39,646 bases of DNA, from sequence record NC_019501.1, one strand, 5' to 3'. Shown piece after piece: positions 31,064 to 38,917 of this stretch (positions are counted from its first letter, which is position 1; the number at the start of each line of letters is the position of its first letter). Source of the stretch: Enterobacteria phage IME10. Position numbers and translations under genes: made by a program. The notes under the pieces are model-generated. The model was not told where the DNA came from. It made no database searches and saw only the letters and a program-made list of their open reading frames with translations.

Positions 31064-33457
31064 ATGGCTAATTACCGTGATTTGTTAGAGCAGGCTGGCG
31101 CACGTTACGGTGTGCCAGAAGGGTTGATGACTGCACTGGGTGCCAAGGAGTCTTCTTACAACCCTGCCGCAGTAAGCTCCGCCGGGGCTGTAGGATTGAC
31201 TCAGGTCATGCCTGGGACATGGCGTGATATGGGTTATACCGATGAGCAAATGCAAAACCCCGAATATCAGGCTGACGCTGGCGCGCGCTATCTGGCAAAG
31301 ATGTACCAGCAGTTTGGTAACTGGCGTGACGCTCTTCAGGCTTATCACGACGGTCCCGGCAACGTTATGAAGGCAAAGCGTGGTGAATATACGCCAGGAC
31401 CTGAAGGCCGCGGTTACGTTGATGATCGCTTTGCTCAATGGGCGGGTGACCCGGTGACAGACTCAACAGTCGAACAGCGCGCCACCTCTGCAAAGGTACA
31501 TCCTCAGCAAGACCCTAACAACCCGTTTGCACAACTGGAAGCACAGTCATCCGAACAAGTATCGGCATCAGGCGTGCAGTCAGACCCAAATAATCCATTT
31601 GCTCAGATTGAGCAGCAGGCAGCCAGTCAGCAGCCACCTCAACCCGTAAGTTCTGTCGCACCGAAACCTGTTCAGCAGCAAGGCGGAATAATGTCTGACC
31701 TTGGTAATGGACTTGCTGAAACCGGGCGCGGCTTACTACAGGCAGGAATCAACGTAGCGAACATACCTGCTGAACTCACTGATGCTGTAACAAGCGCGGC
31801 GGCTTGGGCTGGCGGTAAACTCGGCATTGGCGATGGTACATATCAACCAGCGCCACGAGTAACAACGCAGGGATTAGAGCAGGACTTTGGCCTTCAGCAA
31901 GGCGCGCTGACTCCACAAACGACAGAGGGCAGGGTGTTTGCTGAAGCATTGCCTTACCTCACTCCTGCTGGCGTTGAGAGAGCGGCAGCACAGGCACCAA
32001 CACTTGCTGGTCGAATTGCTCAGGGGGCAACTCGCCTTCTAGCAGAAAACGCAGTTGGATCACTTGCTGAAAATAGTGCGAAAGATGATGCGGAAGCACT
32101 CGCCACCGATTTAGGCGTTGGTGTGCTGGCTGGCGGTGCTATTAACGCTGCCGGACGTGGATTAGGTGCTGCTTATCGTGGCGTTCGTGGTGCTATTGCG
32201 CCAGAAGCGCAGCAGGCTATCAGATTTGCAGAGCGTGAAGGAGTTCCTCTGCACACCACAGACCTGTTACAGCCTACTTCCCGGGTCGGAAAAATGGCGC
32301 AGACTACAGCAGAAAATATCCCTCTGGCTGGCACAAGCGGAATGAGAGCAACGCAACAGGAAGCGAGAAGCCAGTTGGTGCAGAGATTTGCTGATAAATT
32401 CGGCGAGTACGATCCGGCAGTTGTTATTGACAGCCTTAAAGCGAAAACATCAGGAATTCGTCGTGCTGCAGGGAGCCGTCTTGAGCAGGTTCAGAATGCA
32501 ATGGCGGGAGTCAATATACAGCCTGCGCGAGCAATTCAGCAGATTGATACTGAGATATCTAATCTGCAGAAGCTTGGTAAGGTAGCTGATAACGAGACAA
32601 TTTCAAAACTTCAGTCATATCGTGATGAGCTTGTTCGCAATGCTGGCCCTGATGGTCCGGTAAATCTGGATTTGAAGCAATTAAGCGACCTGCGCAGCCA
32701 GTTCAGAATGGACGTGAAGGGTGAGCGACCAGTGTTACCAAACCGTTCCGATGCCGCCATTCAGCGCGTTTACAAGGCAATGACTGACGATATCAATGGT
32801 GCCATTGGTCAGAATCTTGGCAACGATACTCTCCGTAAATATCAGCAGGCCAATGCCGTCTATGCTGACGAAGCGGCGAAACTAAAGAATACCAGGCTGA
32901 AGAATGTTCTCATGAAAGGCGACCTGACGCCGGAAGTTGTCAACAACATGCTATTCAGCAAGAACAAATCGGAAATTAAGACGCTGTATAACTCAGTTGG
33001 TCGCGTTGGCAGGGCGCAAATGCGCAATGGCATCATTGGAAAGGCGATGGAGAAATCAGGTGGTTCCCCTGACCAGTTCCTTCGGCAGCTTAATATTCTG
33101 CAAAACCAGACTGGCATCACATTTAAGGGGCAGGACGCTGCTTATCTGAAAGGATTAAAAAACTACCTGCAATCCACGCAGCAGGCAGCAAAAGCGGCAG
33201 TAACAACACCAACAGGGCAGCAAACCATCCCGTTTATTATCGGGTATGGGACGGCAATGAACCCGGCGACAACTGGCGCAGCAGTAAGCTACGGACTTCT
33301 TACTCGCGCCTATGAGAGCGAGCCATTCAGAAATGCAATGCTCCGAATGGCAAACACCCCACGCGGTTCAACAGCGTTTGAGAAAGCCATGCAGCAGGCA
33401 CAAAAGGCAATTAACGCTATGACGCAGGGGGCTAAGTCTGATGCGTTGTCAGAATAG
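31064..33457 (+). CDS. Ejection protein (gp16 position) with an N-terminal lytic transglycosylase (SLT) domain
   Basis: 797 aa. N-terminal 100 aa carry the SLT signature (GAKESSYNPAAVSSAGAVGLTQVMPGTW); the remainder is Ala/Gln-rich. Confidence 0.75.
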   Translation: MANYRDLLEQAGARYGVPEGLMTALGAKESSYNPAAVSSAGAVGLTQVMPGTWRDMGYTDEQMQNPEYQADAGARYLAKMYQQFGNWRDALQAYHDGPGNVMKAKRGEYTPGPEGRGYVDDRFAQWAGDPVTDSTVEQRATSAKVHPQQDPNNPFAQLEAQSSEQVSASGVQSDPNNPFAQIEQQAASQQPPQPVSSVAPKPVQQQGGIMSDLGNGLAETGRGLLQAGINVANIPAELTDAVTSAAAWAGGKLGIGDGTYQPAPRVTTQGLEQDFGLQQGALTPQTTEGRVFAEALPYLTPAGVERAAAQAPTLAGRIAQGATRLLAENAVGSLAENSAKDDAEALATDLGVGVLAGGAINAAGRGLGAAYRGVRGAIAPEAQQAIRFAEREGVPLHTTDLLQPTSRVGKMAQTTAENIPLAGTSGMRATQQEARSQLVQRFADKFGEYDPAVVIDSLKAKTSGIRRAAGSRLEQVQNAMAGVNIQPARAIQQIDTEISNLQKLGKVADNETISKLQSYRDELVRNAGPDGPVNLDLKQLSDLRSQFRMDVKGERPVLPNRSDAAIQRVYKAMTDDINGAIGQNLGNDTLRKYQQANAVYADEAAKLKNTRLKNVLMKGDLTPEVVNNMLFSKNKSEIKTLYNSVGRVGRAQMRNGIIGKAMEKSGGSPDQFLRQLNILQNQTGITFKGQDAAYLKGLKNYLQSTQQAAKAAVTTPTGQQTIPFIIGYGTAMNPATTGAAVSYGLLTRAYESEPFRNAMLRMANTPRGSTAFEKAMQQAQKAINAMTQGAKSDALSE

Positions 33458-33546: not shown

Positions 33547-33807
33547 TTAGCTACTGTCTTTTTTATATAGCTTCTTGAGCGTATCAAAGACAATTTTCTT
33601 AACCATATCAGATTGTTGTTCTGCCATACGCTCTGCATCGTCAATGTAAACTGATGCAGAGCTTTGTTTATCCAATGATTCTTCAATCGCTGCAATTATC
33701 TCTGAGTTCAGCGACCTGTTATTCATCTTCGCGCGCTGTTTAATTTTCGCGTGGAGTTCATGCGGAAGTCTCAAGTGAAACTGCGCCTCGTCGTATTTGC
33801 TGTACAT
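33547..33807 (-). CDS. mnt: Mnt-like ribbon-helix-helix repressor
   Basis: Track ORF 33547..33840 trimmed to the ATG at 33807. Matches P22 Mnt as remembered, especially the C-terminus (DAERMAEQQSDMVKKIVFDTLKKLYKK). Confidence 0.8.
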   Translation of the reverse strand: MYSKYDEAQFHLRLPHELHAKIKQRAKMNNRSLNSEIIAAIEESLDKQSSASVYIDDAERMAEQQSDMVKKIVFDTLKKLYKKDSS

Positions 33808-33880
33808 CCTTGATGCCTCACCAGTTGGGTGGAATGGCATCGTAACCTACTGGATAAATACTCAATAGTACCATTTCGGT

Positions 33881-33903
33881 ATGCAATCACATCATGATTG
33901 CAT
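33881..33903. promoter_or_regulatory. 9-5-9 inverted repeat ATGCAATCA-CATCA-TGATTGCAT between mnt and the tailspike
   Basis: Perfect 9-bp arms, 25 bp upstream of the tailspike ATG and divergent from mnt. Candidate operator. Confidence 0.4.
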
Positions 33904-33928
33904 CATATCATTCGTCTGGAGCAATGAA

Positions 33929-35749
33929 ATGTCAGATATCACCGCAAATGTTGTGGTAAGCATGCCTTCGCAACTATTCACTATGGCGCGTTCTTTTAAA
34001 GCCGTAGCCAATGGAAAAATTTATATCGGTAAAATTGACACTGACCCGGTAAATCCTGAAAACCAGATTCAGGTTTATGTGGAAAACGAAGACGGTTCTC
34101 ACGTTCCTGTTGCACAGCCAATCATCATTAACGCTGCTGGTTACCCTGTATATAATGGACAGATTGCCAAATTCGTAACTGTGCAAGGCCATTCGATGGC
34201 TGTATACGATGCGTATGGTGTGCAGCAGTTTTATTACCCGAATGTGCTGAAGTATGACCCTGATCAGTTGGAGCAACGATTGTCTTCACCTGGTGGCGCA
34301 GTGTATATAGGTGGCGTTGGTGGTGGAAATTTATCCCAAATAATAAATGCGGTATCTCCAGAACAGTTCGGAGCAGTAGGAGACGGATTCACTGATGATA
34401 TTGAAGCTCTCGATGCTTGCATGGCTTTTGCGAGAGAAAAACCATTAGACATTATATTTAGTAAGACATACGCAATTTCACGTCCTTATGTTATTTACAT
34501 GGGAAATAAAAAAAATCCTCGCCATATTGGTCAAGGGTCCATGGCGAAAATAATATTAACCACAACAACAAAATCTGGATTGGGTAGTGACTCATACGGT
34601 ACTGATTTGAATGTAAACGCAGCTGTTATTGTAGCCGCGATCACAGGTACAGGGCATAACCAACAACCCCAGAACTTTCGGTGGGAAAACATTGACCTTG
34701 ACACCACTGTAGATGCAGATTACGGCATGTACACGTCAAAAATGCAGTCCGCGGCAGTCAGTAATTTCAGGACGTATAATTTCAAGACAGGTATTCAGGA
34801 TAACGGTTCCTGGAATACGTTGTATGAAAACATTAAGATGTCTGCCCACTCCACCGTAGGTTTCCGTAAAAATGCTGGTACTAGTACTACTATCCGTAAC
34901 TGTTACGTAGAGAAATCGAAAGTTGGTTATCGTGTTTACAGCGGATACTCTCAGATTGAAGGGTGTGCATGCGACACTAGCACTGATGTCTCGTATTGGA
35001 TTGAAGGTAACCCAGTAGCTTTAAGTAGTGACAGCACGTTTTCTCTTGTGTCATGTGGCGCAGAGAATTCAGGGACGGCCGTGGTACGAATTACTGGGAC
35101 ACTAACAGCAAGTATTATCAACTTTCAATCATTTAATTGGTCACAACAGCAAGACCCGACACCAGATTGTTTCTTAGATATTCAGTCCAACACTGCTAGC
35201 ATTTCAGTTGAAGAGGTCAGATATCTTGGTGTTGCTCGCAGGATAAAAGACACTGGAACAAACAACACAGTTATCATAAGAAATATGACGACTCGTGGTA
35301 CAGATGTTAGAGATCAGGATACCTATCCAAATAGCACTAGAATTATTGAGCTTAATCATAACGGTGTGCGAGTAGCGACAGGTTACGATAAAAATGGGAT
35401 TTTGATCACTGAAGATAATATGACCGATTCAATCGGAAGTACTACATGGTCAAGGCTATTTAACAAACAAAAAATTTGGCGCTATAGGGGTATAGTAACA
35501 AGAACAAGCGGTCAGAGTTACGGAAGGTTACAGATCAATATTCCGTTCACTATGGCTGATAATAGTTATAGCGTTGCTATTACACCAGAAGTGTATCACA
35601 CCGATATGGCAACATATGGTTACCAATGTTCAGTAGGCCCAACTGATAAAACAACAACATCATTCTTCATCAACGTAAACTCTGGAACAGGTAACACGTC
35701 ATGGAACAGTATAGCTGTTGACGTAATTGTGATGGGGCTTTCTATCTAA
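33929..35749 (+). CDS. Tailspike protein with a conserved head-binding domain and a divergent receptor-binding domain
   Basis: Track ORF 33881..35749 trimmed to the ATG at 33929. N-terminal 110 aa or so match the P22/Sf6 tailspike head-binding domain as remembered; the rest is unrelated to P22 gp9. Confidence 0.9.
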
Positions 35750-35761
35750 TTAATGTGTTGC

Positions 35762-35797
35762 GATGGAATTGGCTAATGTGATATATGCAATTCCATC
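35762..35797. repeat. Stem-loop: 10-bp perfect inverted repeat GATGGAATTG / CAATTCCATC with a 16-nt spacer
   Basis: Lies 13 bp after the tailspike stop, at the edge of the AT-rich cargo region. Confidence 0.35.
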
Positions 35798-35993: not shown

Positions 35994-37460
35994 ATGAGAA
36001 ATATGAAATTACTCTCAAAAAGACTAGTGGTAATTGTATGTTCTGTATTTATCCTTTCAATTATATTGTGCATACATTTAAGAAAGGGAAACTTTAACCT
36101 CAATAATATAAGTAGCGTACAAAATGCTAATGACATATCAACAACCAATAGTATATTGAATGATGATTTAGTGTTTTCCGAAAGATATGATTCCCTTTTT
36201 TATTACTTCGTGCATTCGTTTGTTAAATATTCTTCAGATGATTATGCTCTTGTTAATTATCCTGGGATGCTATCGACGAGTGGGAATAAGACAAACCAAG
36301 TTGAGGGTACGGCAAGGACGCTACCATTAATTGCTGCATGGGTTTATTCTGGAAGAGATTCAACCATTATCGTTAATGGTAATAAGTTAAATATAGTAGA
36401 TCTGATTAGGAGTAGTATATTGTCTGGAACTAATCCAAGTTCTGTAAACTATTGGGGGGATATACATGATTATGATCAGAGAATTTTAGAGGCCGCAGAT
36501 ATAGTAAGAGTCTTATGGCTTACAAAAAAAGAGATATGGAATCACTTAAAAGATAATGAAAAAAATCAGATAGCTTTGTGGCTGGAGCAAGCTGCATCGG
36601 CGAAAACTGTAAAAAACAATTGGCTACTAGCTCCATTCATAATTCAGAATTTTTTGCAGGATAATGGATATACAGTTAAGGTTAATTACAAAAATTACAC
36701 AGACTTTAAGAAAAACTATCTTGAACACGGATGGTTTAGAGATGGAAATGATGGAGAAGTAGATTTCTATAATACTTGGGGTATATCCTATGACTTATTC
36801 TGGATATCACTTATTACAGATTATGATAATGCTTTTATACTAAAAACACTATCTGAGTCGGCTGATTTCACTTCACATTTAATATCTAAAAATGGCATCC
36901 CGCTTGTTGGTAGAAGTATTTGCTACAGGACTGCAGCACCCACACCTGTTCTAATTGAAGGTCTATTAAAAAATGATGGATATCATCAAGGTTTAGCAAA
37001 ATCAGCATTAGACTATACGTGGAAATATTTTGCAAGCCACAATGCATTAGTATCAGATACATTATCAATGGGGTATTTTAATAATGACAAGCGCTTTGTT
37101 GATAATTATAGCGGGTCAGGAAGTTGCCTGTGGGGAATAAGGTCGTTAGTTGTCGCTTATATGAATGATAAAAAATCATATATCTGGAATGGGAAATATG
37201 AGAGATTGCCTATTGATAATTCTGATTTCATTATCAATGCAGATAAACTTGGTTGGATAGTTGAGGGTAATAAAGATAGTGGAGAGATAAGGGTTATTAT
37301 ACCTGCAAACGAAAAAAACTCACCAAAGATAAATGATACCAATAAACTTAAAGAAGTTATATGGAGAGTTCTTGGTAAAGCAGGAAGAACTAATCAACAT
37401 GACATTGAGTACCTAAAGCCATATTACTCATCACTAGAGCCTATATCTGACGTTGAGTGA
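35994..37460 (+). CDS. Hypothetical signal-anchored protein (488 aa), AT-rich cargo gene
   Basis: Track ORF (alternative start ATG 36003). N-terminal hydrophobic segment KRLVVIVCSVFILSIILCIHL, then an Asn/Lys/Tyr/Trp-rich domain. AT-rich codon usage unlike the rest of the window. Confidence 0.6.
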   Translation: MRNMKLLSKRLVVIVCSVFILSIILCIHLRKGNFNLNNISSVQNANDISTTNSILNDDLVFSERYDSLFYYFVHSFVKYSSDDYALVNYPGMLSTSGNKTNQVEGTARTLPLIAAWVYSGRDSTIIVNGNKLNIVDLIRSSILSGTNPSSVNYWGDIHDYDQRILEAADIVRVLWLTKKEIWNHLKDNEKNQIALWLEQAASAKTVKNNWLLAPFIIQNFLQDNGYTVKVNYKNYTDFKKNYLEHGWFRDGNDGEVDFYNTWGISYDLFWISLITDYDNAFILKTLSESADFTSHLISKNGIPLVGRSICYRTAAPTPVLIEGLLKNDGYHQGLAKSALDYTWKYFASHNALVSDTLSMGYFNNDKRFVDNYSGSGSCLWGIRSLVVAYMNDKKSYIWNGKYERLPIDNSDFIINADKLGWIVEGNKDSGEIRVIIPANEKNSPKINDTNKLKEVIWRVLGKAGRTNQHDIEYLKPYYSSLEPISDVE

Positions 37461-37493: not shown

Positions 37494-37518
37494 TTAAGGT
37501 GGCATTATGCCACCTTTT
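37494..37518. terminator. Hairpin between the convergent cargo ORF and int (bidirectional terminator candidate)
   Basis: AAGGTGGCAT / ATGCCACCTT inverted repeat followed by TTTT; the int stop codon lies in the loop. Confidence 0.5.
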
Positions 37519-38662
37519 CATCAAGCCAGTCCGCCCACCACTGCATCATTTCTCTGCGCTTATCGAGATACTGAGCATGGTTGTAAATCCCACGCACAGA
37601 TCCGCCGTTGGCATGTGCCAGTTGCACTTCAATAGCGTCAGCAGGCCATTCGTGCTCGTTCATAATTGTGCTGAATTCATGCCTGAATCCGTGACCGCTT
37701 TCCAGACCCTCATAGCCGATTTGTTTGATCACAAGCAATACTGCGTTCTCGCAGATTGGCTTCTTCTTATCGTTGCGCCCGGCAAAAACAAACTCTGATA
37801 CTGGTTTAGTGATTGAGCTTAGTGTAGTGAGAAGTTCAACTACCTGGTCTGACATAGGAACCACATGAATTTTGCGTCCCTTCATCACACTGGCGTCAAT
37901 GGTGATAATCATGTTTTCAAAATCGACGTTCTTCCATTGCATGGAACGAAGCTCTTTTGTTCTGAGGGCTGTGTAGCGTAAAACTTTTGTCGCAATGAGC
38001 GATACGATACTTCCTGAAAATGTTGCAAGTGCTTTGTTGAATGCCGGGATCTGGTCGGCAGGAAGAAACGGGAAGTTCTTCTTGCGGTATCCCTTCATGG
38101 CGTCAGCAAGGTCAGGTGCCGGGTTATATTTAGCCCTGCCGGTGACAATAGCGTAACGGAAAACCTCGCCGCATCTTCTGCGTGCTTTGTTGGCTCGCTC
38201 CATTGCACCGCGATCTTCAAATCTGCGGATTACTTCCAGCAGTTGCATCGGCTCAATATCCAGAATCTCAAGGCCGCCGATGATAGGTAAAATGTCGTCA
38301 TCAAACATTTTTGCAAGTTCAGTCGCATACCCTACTGACCAGACTTGCTTCTTGTGCTCGTACCATTCCTTGTAAATCGCACTAAAGGAATTGTTGTTAG
38401 ACGAAGCCTTTTTCGCTTTTACCGGATCGATGCCAACCGAGATGTCTTTCCTCGCGGTCCATGCTTTATCTCTTGCCTCCTGCAAAGTCATTAGCGGATA
38501 TTTTCCTACGGTCAGGATTTTCTCCTTACCGTCAATCTTGTAGCGAAGCTGCCATACCTTTTTCCCTGACACAGGGACATAAAGGTACAGGCCATTACCA
38601 TCGAGTAGGCGGTATGGTTTTTCTTTCGGCTTTGCTGCTTCAATCTGCTTAACGGTGAGCAT
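37505..38662 (-). CDS. int: Tyrosine integrase (P4-type, with an N-terminal arm-binding domain)
   Basis: Track ORF 37505..38698 trimmed to the ATG at 38662 (MLTVKQIEAAKP...). Catalytic signatures HGFRHEF and GIYNHAQY. Confidence 0.9.
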   Translation of the reverse strand: MLTVKQIEAAKPKEKPYRLLDGNGLYLYVPVSGKKVWQLRYKIDGKEKILTVGKYPLMTLQEARDKAWTARKDISVGIDPVKAKKASSNNNSFSAIYKEWYEHKKQVWSVGYATELAKMFDDDILPIIGGLEILDIEPMQLLEVIRRFEDRGAMERANKARRRCGEVFRYAIVTGRAKYNPAPDLADAMKGYRKKNFPFLPADQIPAFNKALATFSGSIVSLIATKVLRYTALRTKELRSMQWKNVDFENMIITIDASVMKGRKIHVVPMSDQVVELLTTLSSITKPVSEFVFAGRNDKKKPICENAVLLVIKQIGYEGLESGHGFRHEFSTIMNEHEWPADAIEVQLAHANGGSVRGIYNHAQYLDKRREMMQWWADWLDEKVA

Positions 38663-38917
38663 GGGTAAAAATCCGGTGGGTAAAATTATTTTATCCACTT
38701 TTTACCCGTCATGGAGTGCGGCTGTCAACGATCTGAAGCGAACCATGACGAACTGTAAATCTACGGAAGGCTTGATATTCAGGGGATTTTGCGGACTGGT
38801 ACGGATGAGAGCGAACTGATAAATGGTGTCCCCTGCAGACATCTACTTGAAGCGGCAGGGGATTGATTGGAATGGTGTTTTTTAGATGTGAAAAAAATTT
38901 TACCCGCTATTTTACCC
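38663..38917. promoter_or_regulatory. Cluster of five GGGTAAAA / TTTTACCC repeats between xis and int (candidate integrase arm-type sites, attP region)
   Basis: Direct copies at 38663-38670 and 38678-38685; inverted copies at 38700-38707, 38898-38905 and 38910-38917. Also an 8-bp inverted repeat TCCCCTGC...GCAGGGGA at about 38829-38863. Confidence 0.4.

Follow-up and report, generated by a model that had tools for sequence, protein, structure and literature searches.

The window, by which we mean the whole stretch of 39,646 nucleotides (nt) that was analyzed, holds the complete genome of a P22-like temperate phage, arranged as in the excised form. Its gene order runs from gp7/gp20/gp16-like ORFs through mnt (33547-33840, minus strand), the tailspike gene, and a DUF2264 gene to intS (37505-38698, minus strand) and a torI/xis-like sequence. 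The tailspike gene has the position typical of P22-like phages, where it follows the ejection-protein genes and an immI remnant and precedes the accessory/integrase region. With the exception of the spike body, positions 15000-39646 of the window (24.6 kb) are 96.5% identical over 60% to Lederbergvirus APC_JM3.2, and phage Dewey is similarly close to this region. The features of the locus are listed in Table 1.

Table 1. Features of the tailspike locus, in window coordinates
Feature	Coordinates	Strand	Residues	Basis or remark
Shine-Dalgarno-like GGAG	33918..33921	+		Read from the sequence; 7 nt 5' of ATG 33929
Tailspike gene	33929..35749	+	606 aa	From the ORF list; stop codon included
Head-binding (virion attachment) domain	33929..34270	+	1-114	Ends in ...NVLKYDPDQ; Pfam PF09008, Sf6/P22 matches, DNA identity
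Linker	34271..34324	+	115-132	Common to only some prophage tailspikes
Spike body, N-terminal cap motif and predicted right-handed parallel beta-helix	34325..35290	+	~133-454	
Allelic mosaic patch within the predicted beta-helix	34739..34963	+	~271-345	Gene nt 811-1080; window versus FREC5
Asp349 codon, proposed catalytic carboxylate	34973..34975	+	349	In CACDTSTD; invariant in A2 and A3
Glu379 codon, proposed catalytic carboxylate	35063..35065	+	379	In CGAENSG; invariant in A2 and A3
Predicted C-terminal beta-sandwich domain	35339..35746	+	~471-606	Model strands E357-E491 (body numbering), pLDDT mostly 70-92
10-bp inverted repeat, possible late-operon terminator (weak evidence)	35762..35797	+		Directly 3' of the stop codon

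The tailspike ORF is uninterrupted and ends with TAA at 35747-35749. In the six-frame ORF list, the same frame opens at an upstream in-frame ATG at 33881 (33881-35749, plus strand). We favor the start at 33929 because of the spacing of the GGAG, because the N-terminus then fits the M-[ST]-D-I start of Sf6, P22, and HK620, and because the annotated copy in Escherichia coli FREC5, a "phage tailspike protein," is likewise 606 aa long. At the position equivalent to the inverted repeat that follows the stop codon, HK620 has an annotated late terminator. The repeat has a minimum free energy of -16.6 kcal/mol but a z-score of -1.5 against shuffles and no T-run, and is not significant. Promoter and terminator scans around the tailspike gene performed no better than shuffles.

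A reading made from the sequence alone had assigned the first 110 or so residues to a P22/Sf6-type head-binding domain. This assignment was borne out: the alignment of residues 1-113 to Pfam PF09008 (Head_binding) spans all 113 positions of the profile, with an E value of 1.7e-66 (222 bits; cut-off, 24). In a phmmer search of the PDB, Sf6 gp14 (7sg7) was matched over residues 1-115 (E 3.9e-63) and several P22 gp9 entries over residues 1-114 (E about 1e-44 to 1e-50), and nothing significant was found in the P22 and Sf6 chains past the head-binding domain. For the DNA, a megablast search of 50,697 phage records showed 88-91% identity to HK620, Sf6, Sf101, CUS-3, N7, Gally, and APC_JM3.2, among others, up to a breakpoint. 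All matches stop at gene nt 339-344 and most of them at 339-341, corresponding to window positions 34267-34269. The breakpoint coincides with the "YDPDQ" hinge, and the anchor/body boundaries of Lederbergvirus tailspikes have been placed at residues 123-126, just past this hinge (Pas et al. 2023, PMC10408124, Table S1).

The claim that resemblance to P22 gp9 is lost past about position 34270 was likewise correct. When the protein was aligned by BLASTP with the whole HK620 spike, residues 1-128 matched at 87%, and nothing significant was found past residue ~128. No similarity to P22 gp9 (an endorhamnosidase), Sf6 gp14, or HK620 gp9 was detectable after this residue, and on this ground we do not place the protein in the body families of P22, HK620, and Sf6.

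The same reading had described the DNA as more AT-rich beyond 34270. This is true, as GC falls from 0.433 (33929-34270) to 0.412 (34271-35749) and GC3 from 0.42 to 0.35, but the shift is small and the argument built on it weak. Both parts of the gene lie below the genome mean (0.475) and the late genes (0.509). The sharp drop in GC falls 3' of the tailspike gene, to 0.287 in the intergenic region. The adjoining DUF2264 gene is AT-rich (GC 0.335) and more unusual than the tailspike gene. Its product is membrane-anchored and is distant kin of GH154-type glucuronate-acting enzymes; a literature search on DUF2264 returned nothing.

Tailspike bodies set the host range of phages and serve as serotype-specific reagents and depolymerases. 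To describe the body of this spike, we used AlphaFold. A full-length model built from a 13-sequence alignment was discarded (pLDDT 58, head-binding domain unusable). A body-only model built from a 20-sequence alignment that included relatives at 30-35% identity reached a mean pLDDT of 86.1 and a pTM of 0.75. The predicted fold has a short helical cap and a long stack of rungs, each with three strands; the C-terminal part is a beta-sandwich. Structure prediction for a beta-helix or other fold had been proposed from the sequence, and the model is a right-handed parallel beta-helix; such a C-terminal body is a feature of P22-like tailspikes. The C-terminal domain is conserved to the last residues in homologs at 67-71% identity and, by analogy with the P22, Sf6, and HK620 spikes, would stabilize the trimer.

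The same body, with 67-71% amino acid identity over 96-100% of residues 115-606, stands behind at least five other N-terminal anchors. By tblastn, it was found at 68.5% identity in the tail protein EcG1_104 (XKC19817.1) of Phapecoctavirus vB_Ec-G1 (151 kb), whose gene sits within a block of baseplate and tail-fibre genes. In a collection of 5.8 billion proteins, copies at 67-71% identity occur in proteins of 497, 540, 588, 622, 655, 700, and 991 aa, some with PF18668 (Tail_spike_N) and some without a recognizable anchor. The body is also carried by an N4-like genome with an SU10-type portal and adaptor (contig P0006, 72.5 kb), by a T7-like genome (P0004), and by a phage that has baseplate wedge genes and a contractile tail (P0005). 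In an alignment of these proteins (A1), the common part opens near residue 133 of the window protein. Thus, EcG1_104 and the metagenomic homologs P0002-P0011 share the body with the window protein, but their anchors are absent or short, of the PF18668 type, or others, and their virions are of the large myovirus, N4-like, T7-like, or baseplate-bearing kind.

DNA of the head-binding domain was detected in 1,079 of 5,426 complete E. coli genomes (~20%), where it is joined to other bodies. The body was present in three of the 5,426, with one copy intact, and low-stringency blastn with the body returned the same three genomes again. Because the body occurs behind other anchors, the anchor occurs with other bodies, and the breakpoint lies at the YDPDQ hinge, module exchange is shown directly and not only as a loss of similarity. 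The sequence-only reading, which had seen in this gene the signature of host-range module exchange, was therefore right. Earlier work had already shown anchors and bodies to be modular across phage genera (Pas et al. 2023, PMC10408124; Sorensen et al. 2021, PMC8432352). Exchange at the YDPDQ hinge is textbook knowledge and would come as no surprise to a specialist; what the tailspike adds to the catalogue is a rare, uncharacterized body family.

Between the two modules lies the linker. In some prophage tailspikes with other bodies, such as that of the GPEC1405 prophage, DNA identity to the window gene extends to gene nt 385. At the protein level only, the linker resembles the motif L(R/x)xxLxSxxGxxLIG at the anchor end of virulent-phage spikes (P0003 and P0005-P0011 in alignment A1), to which it may be homologous. 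In virulent genera, conserved DNA motifs at anchor ends have been described that probably serve as recombination sites; no such motifs were found in Lederbergviruses (Pas et al. 2023, PMC10408124). We consider the linker a likely crossover site between the modules.

The exact window protein is present in the Logan assembly SRR3545460 (E. coli), in a prophage at argW. The closest end-to-end match is an uncharacterized prophage tailspike of E. coli FREC5 (WP_416045088.1; 606 aa, 95.7% amino acid identity, about 94.2-94.4% nucleotide identity). At 90% identity, the protein falls into a cluster of 74 members (for example WP_244582117.1 and WP_225115215.1) with P0001 as the representative, which is 91.7% identical to the window protein. 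The 15 members listed are all from E. coli. Several members are full-length 606-aa copies annotated as "phage tailspike protein," and many are shortened (154-575 aa). An end-to-end alignment with a characterized tailspike of known specificity would have spoken against a chimera; full-length matches were to uncharacterized prophage genes only.

FREC5 and the 90% cluster agree with the window in the end-to-end length of 606 aa and the argW integration site. FREC5 differs in the gene that follows, which encodes a hexapeptide-repeat (LbetaH) protein instead of the DUF2264 protein, and in one divergent patch of the tailspike gene (Table 1). Most of this patch is 70-80% identical at the nucleotide level, rising to 89% at its 3' edge, versus 97-100% in the flanks, and it carries 13 of the 26 amino acid differences between the two alleles. 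At gene nt ~721-900, both alleles are 80-91% identical to EcG1_104, versus roughly 60-70% elsewhere. The patchy divergence from FREC5 and the local closeness of both alleles to EcG1_104 indicate short exchange tracts between alleles of temperate and virulent phages. With exchange tracts inside the body, and with one body moving among the spikes of temperate P22-like, N4-like, T7-like, and large myovirus phages, this is an unusually clear case. Synonymous changes between the window and FREC5 alleles outnumber nonsynonymous ones (65 to 26 codons), which is consistent with purifying selection on the tailspike.

The body family is small and rare. An exhaustive HMMER search with residues 115-606 against 1.84 billion cluster representatives yielded 11 clusters (50% identity) at E < 1e-30, two of them close and nine at 31-35% identity; past these, the same search gave partial matches to the N-terminal half only. 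A profile re-search of a word-indexed protein database missed the relatives at 30-35%, which only the exhaustive search of representatives yielded. In IMG/VR, the only relatives were two at 32-33% identity plus a partial one at 24%, and the body was not found among GTDB species representatives. In Pfam, PF09008 was the sole match of the window protein at E <= 0.01; PF12708, the family of pectate-lyase-3 type beta-helices, is precomputed for the close homologs P0002, P0008, P0010, and P0011. A close solved structure of the body was not found.

To look for candidate catalytic residues, we used two alignments of 20 sequences each, reaching down to 30% identity (A2) and 17% (A3). They share just six invariant positions: T318, S319, Y340, D349, G377, and E379 (full-length numbering). 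In the model, the equivalent strand one helix rung (30 residues) past D349 ends with E379. That the two carboxylates are invariant and one rung apart suggests a glycosidase, in which D349 and E379 might form the acid/base pair of a hydrolase mechanism. Both residues are kept in EcG1_104 and in P0002-P0011. The pair is deduced in this way and not by alignment to the catalytic residues of the P22, Sf6, and HK620 spikes.

Among described receptor-binding proteins (RBPs), the nearest are those of subtype X2 of Pas et al., namely PGN829.1_RBP2 (AXY82585.1) with 34.4% and ECML-4_RBP3 (YP_009101512.1) with 32.1% identity over 96% of residues 115-606. The window body thereby lies above the 30% identity at which that study clustered receptor-binding parts into this subtype. 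Subtype X2 is also the best structural match in BFVD (TMq 0.72), but it is distant in sequence and its members have Gamaleyavirus and Kuttervirus anchors. Both are listed without a serogroup (Pas et al. 2023, PMC10408124, Table S1). In a study of Ackermannviridae TSP subtypes, ECML-4 TSP3 is not assigned a receptor (Sorensen et al. 2021, PMC8432352), and literature searches on PGN829.1 did not find functional data. Once the substrate of the window body is known, all phages carrying this body, and subtype X2 as well, could immediately be given a receptor. More remote is the tailspike depolymerase gp86 of Acinetobacter phage Belisarius (PDB 24qi), which shares 18-19% identity, is capsule-specific, belongs to a phage of another host genus, and offers no clue to the substrate. 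The Phi92 gp150 colanidase (PDB 6e0v) has the cap motif in common with the window protein (E 8e-9), but the rest of its body is dissimilar. Since only residues 117-184 align and the TM score is 0.27, we rejected membership in the gp150-type colanidases.

Taken together, the gene very probably encodes an intact, functional tailspike of a P22-like (Lederbergvirus-type) temperate E. coli podovirus, built from two modules by recombination. The first module (residues 1-114), a head-binding domain found genus-wide, would dock the spike trimer on the tail hub. The second (residues ~133-606), the predicted beta-helix and beta-sandwich, is of a small, rare family of putative depolymerase bodies found in unrelated E. 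coli phages. The two would be of separate ancestry, joined at the YDPDQ hinge via the short linker. P22-like tailspikes are homotrimers, six to a virion, that destroy their receptor by endoglycosidase activity on host polysaccharide. By analogy with the spikes of P22, Sf6, and HK620, a trimer of this protein may bind a host surface polysaccharide along the helix groove. It would cleave the polymer, with Asp349 and Glu379 forming the acid/base pair, and thereby allow the virion to descend to the outer membrane. The analysis itself shows the domain composition, the breakpoint, the fold, the presence of the body in several phage types, the mosaicism within the gene, and the conservation of the two carboxylates. 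From these we infer trimer formation, enzymatic activity, a hydrolase mechanism, and an O-antigen-type polysaccharide as the substrate.

The sequence-only reading had raised a new polysaccharide specificity, which the body may define. We compared the polysaccharide loci of the three complete E. coli genomes that carry the body. FREC5, with the intact copy, has O8-family wzm/wzt, a methyltransferase-only terminator, and a 1,213-aa glycosyltransferase adjoining hisIE. It has an additional unnamed Wzx/Wzy cluster between galF and gnd, which is distantly homologous to the O27 cluster (tblastx segments mostly 30-60%). KH_005 has an O9-family locus and a different Wzx/Wzy cluster, essentially unrelated to the FREC5 and O27 clusters (one weak 31% match). 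NCBIfam did not type the additional Wzx/Wzy clusters of these two strains. CUVM53 lacks a polymannan locus and, going by NCBI naming, is O27. The tailspike gene survives in CUVM53 and KH_005 as IS1-truncated 3' fragments only. Hosts that are O8-type, O9-type, and O27 fit poorly with a strictly O-serogroup-specific enzyme, although two of the three copies are relics truncated by IS1. Among possible receptors, an O-antigen-type polysaccharide leads our ranking, followed by a non-serogroup polymer; O8/O9 mannan is a specific guess with weak support.

That the body targets not the O-antigen proper but a non-serogroup capsule-like polymer or exopolysaccharide (colanic acid, a group 4 or K_LPS antigen, or another common polymer) appears unlikely to us. 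To our knowledge, all characterized Enterobacteria P22-like spikes of this architecture target the O-antigen, except K1 endosialidases (see also Pas et al. 2023, PMC10408124, Table S1). The inconsistent serogroups of the hosts argue for such a polymer, as does the second Wzx/Wzy cluster that FREC5 and KH_005 have besides their O8/O9 loci, and RBP subtypes with inconsistent serogroups have been read as probably not binding O-antigen (Pas et al. 2023, PMC10408124). For colanic acid in particular, CUVM53 and KH_005 carry colanic acid clusters, and the best PHROG, phrog_8280 (E 1.8e-117, residues 1-544), bears the label "tail spike protein with colonic acid degradation activity," but this label is an annotation and not a test. 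The weak match to the Phi92 colanidase over residues 117-184, which has a profile E value of 1.2e-12, is confined to the cap motif FGAxGDGxTDD, common to many unrelated beta-helix spikes, and in Foldseek the colanidase ranks 45th. Furthermore, vB_Ec-G1 has a separate "colanic acid degradation protein" gene besides its homolog of the body.

A narrower proposal, which we regard as distinctly unlikely, is that the body is an endomannosidase specific for O8/O9 polymannan, as in coliphage Omega8. Prehm and Jann are said to have reported endomannosidase activity of that phage on O8/O9 polymannan in 1976; we know of no sequenced gene for this enzyme. Two of the three body-bearing E. coli strains carry ABC-transporter polymannan loci (FREC5 of the O8 family, KH_005 of the O9 family), but CUVM53 does not, the O8 and O9 mannans are chemically different, and the sample consists of three strains and one distant cousin. 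This cousin is the 34%-identical body of PGN829.1, the host of which is recorded as "serotype 08." Against a mannan receptor, PGN829.1 is reported to lyse multiple uropathogenic strains, and O8 has been assigned to another subtype, G7C_RBP1, with no serogroup for PGN829.1_RBP2 (Pas et al. 2023, PMC10408124, Table S1). The tailspike could also be a decaying prophage relic without current function, which is hardly credible for the window copy. Many members of the 90% cluster are truncated, as are the CUVM53 and KH_005 copies, but the window copy is full length with a ribosome-binding site and a stop codon, other full-length 606-aa copies exist, and the changes relative to FREC5 are mostly synonymous. 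Moreover, it resides in a complete P22-like genome in which all virion genes are uninterrupted ORFs.

Finally, the spike body and the neighboring DUF2264 gene could be a matched pair. The spike would then recognize and cut an E. coli polysaccharide for which there is no known phage enzyme, either an O27-like antigen of common sugars or the O8/O9 polymannans, and the DUF2264 protein would be a new lysogenic-conversion enzyme that remodels the same receptor in the periplasm and blocks superinfection. We consider this pairing quite improbable and present it as a speculation.

The slot directly 3′ of the tailspike gene, between it and the integrase gene, is occupied by a gene for a 488-aa DUF2264 protein, which is very AT-rich (GC 0.335, GC3 0.27). 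In P22-like phages, this slot is the usual place of O-antigen conversion genes. The protein carries a hydrophobic, membrane-anchor-like segment at its N-terminus. When compared with solved structures, it showed weak sequence similarity to the glucuronate dehydratases 9o4u and 9nwf (E 1e-10) and to the β-galactosidase 8oi4. No match was found in PHROG or NCBIfam, and a literature search for DUF2264 found no paper naming it. We consider the gene a candidate for a new, putative type of receptor-modifying or exclusion gene.

Coordinates of the features at and around the tailspike locus and in the host strains
Feature	Location	Strand	Remark
P22 gp16-like ejection protein gene, 797 aa	window 31064-33457	+	
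Mnt/Arc-type ribbon-helix-helix repressor gene	window 33547-33840	-	just upstream of tailspike
DUF2264 (PF10022) gene, 488 aa	window 35994-37460	+	AT-rich
DUF2264 gene, further occurrences	L015 8001-9425; L003 6254-7711		L015, another argW prophage; L003, CUVM53
196-aa protein gene	L001 10843-11433 (FREC5); L004 8890-9480 (KH_005)	-	post-tailspike slot
IS1 element and 3′ tailspike fragment	L003 4614-6000 (CUVM53); L004 7184-8868 (KH_005)		
P22-type tailspike allele	L015 5807-7579; L017 3-2141		different body
Wzx/Wzy polysaccharide cluster	L008 1198-7216 (FREC5); L011 5610-11484 (KH_005)		between galF and gnd

In the E. coli genomes FREC5 and KH_005, a 196-aa protein takes the place of the DUF2264 protein after the tailspike; it is annotated as "hypothetical protein" in the former and as "LbetaH domain-containing protein" (hexapeptide-repeat, acyltransferase-like) in the latter. 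Thus, near-identical spikes are paired with two different accessory genes. A 65%-identical DUF2264 homolog sits 3′ of a P22-type tailspike with a wholly different body in another argW prophage. This other allele, which reads YDPDQ and then LKTVFYNTLNWVTPDQF..., is always followed by this 65%-identical homolog. In loci L017-L019, its C-terminal tail ends ...LQEAIDRIERLEETISILQNKIS and is coiled-coil-like, and a 65-aa ORF also follows it.

In CUVM53 and KH_005, a 3′ fragment of the tailspike gene adjoins an IS1 element. These prophages are mostly deleted otherwise, the accessory gene and intS remaining at argW. The 90% cluster of the tailspike protein contains many truncated members (154-575 aa), which suggests that relics of this kind are common.

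On the 5′ side, the ejection protein combines two domains: an SLT lytic transglycosylase domain at the N-terminus (PF01464, E 2.9e-25) and, fused to it, the gp16 domain (PF26808, from precomputed matches of the identical gene). Between the repressor gene and the tailspike gene, the window contains no ORF of at least 50 aa; therefore, the immI region appears reduced. At the equivalent place, FREC5 harbors arc-like genes and an antirepressor.

FREC5 (O8-type) and KH_005 (O9-type) each contain a complete-looking galF-gnd Wzx/Wzy cluster and, additionally, an ABC-transporter polymannan locus beside his. Because both loci are present, each strain may expose two different polymers linked to LPS on its surface. 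Between the FREC5 Wzx/Wzy cluster and the O27 cluster of CUVM53, there is distant homology.
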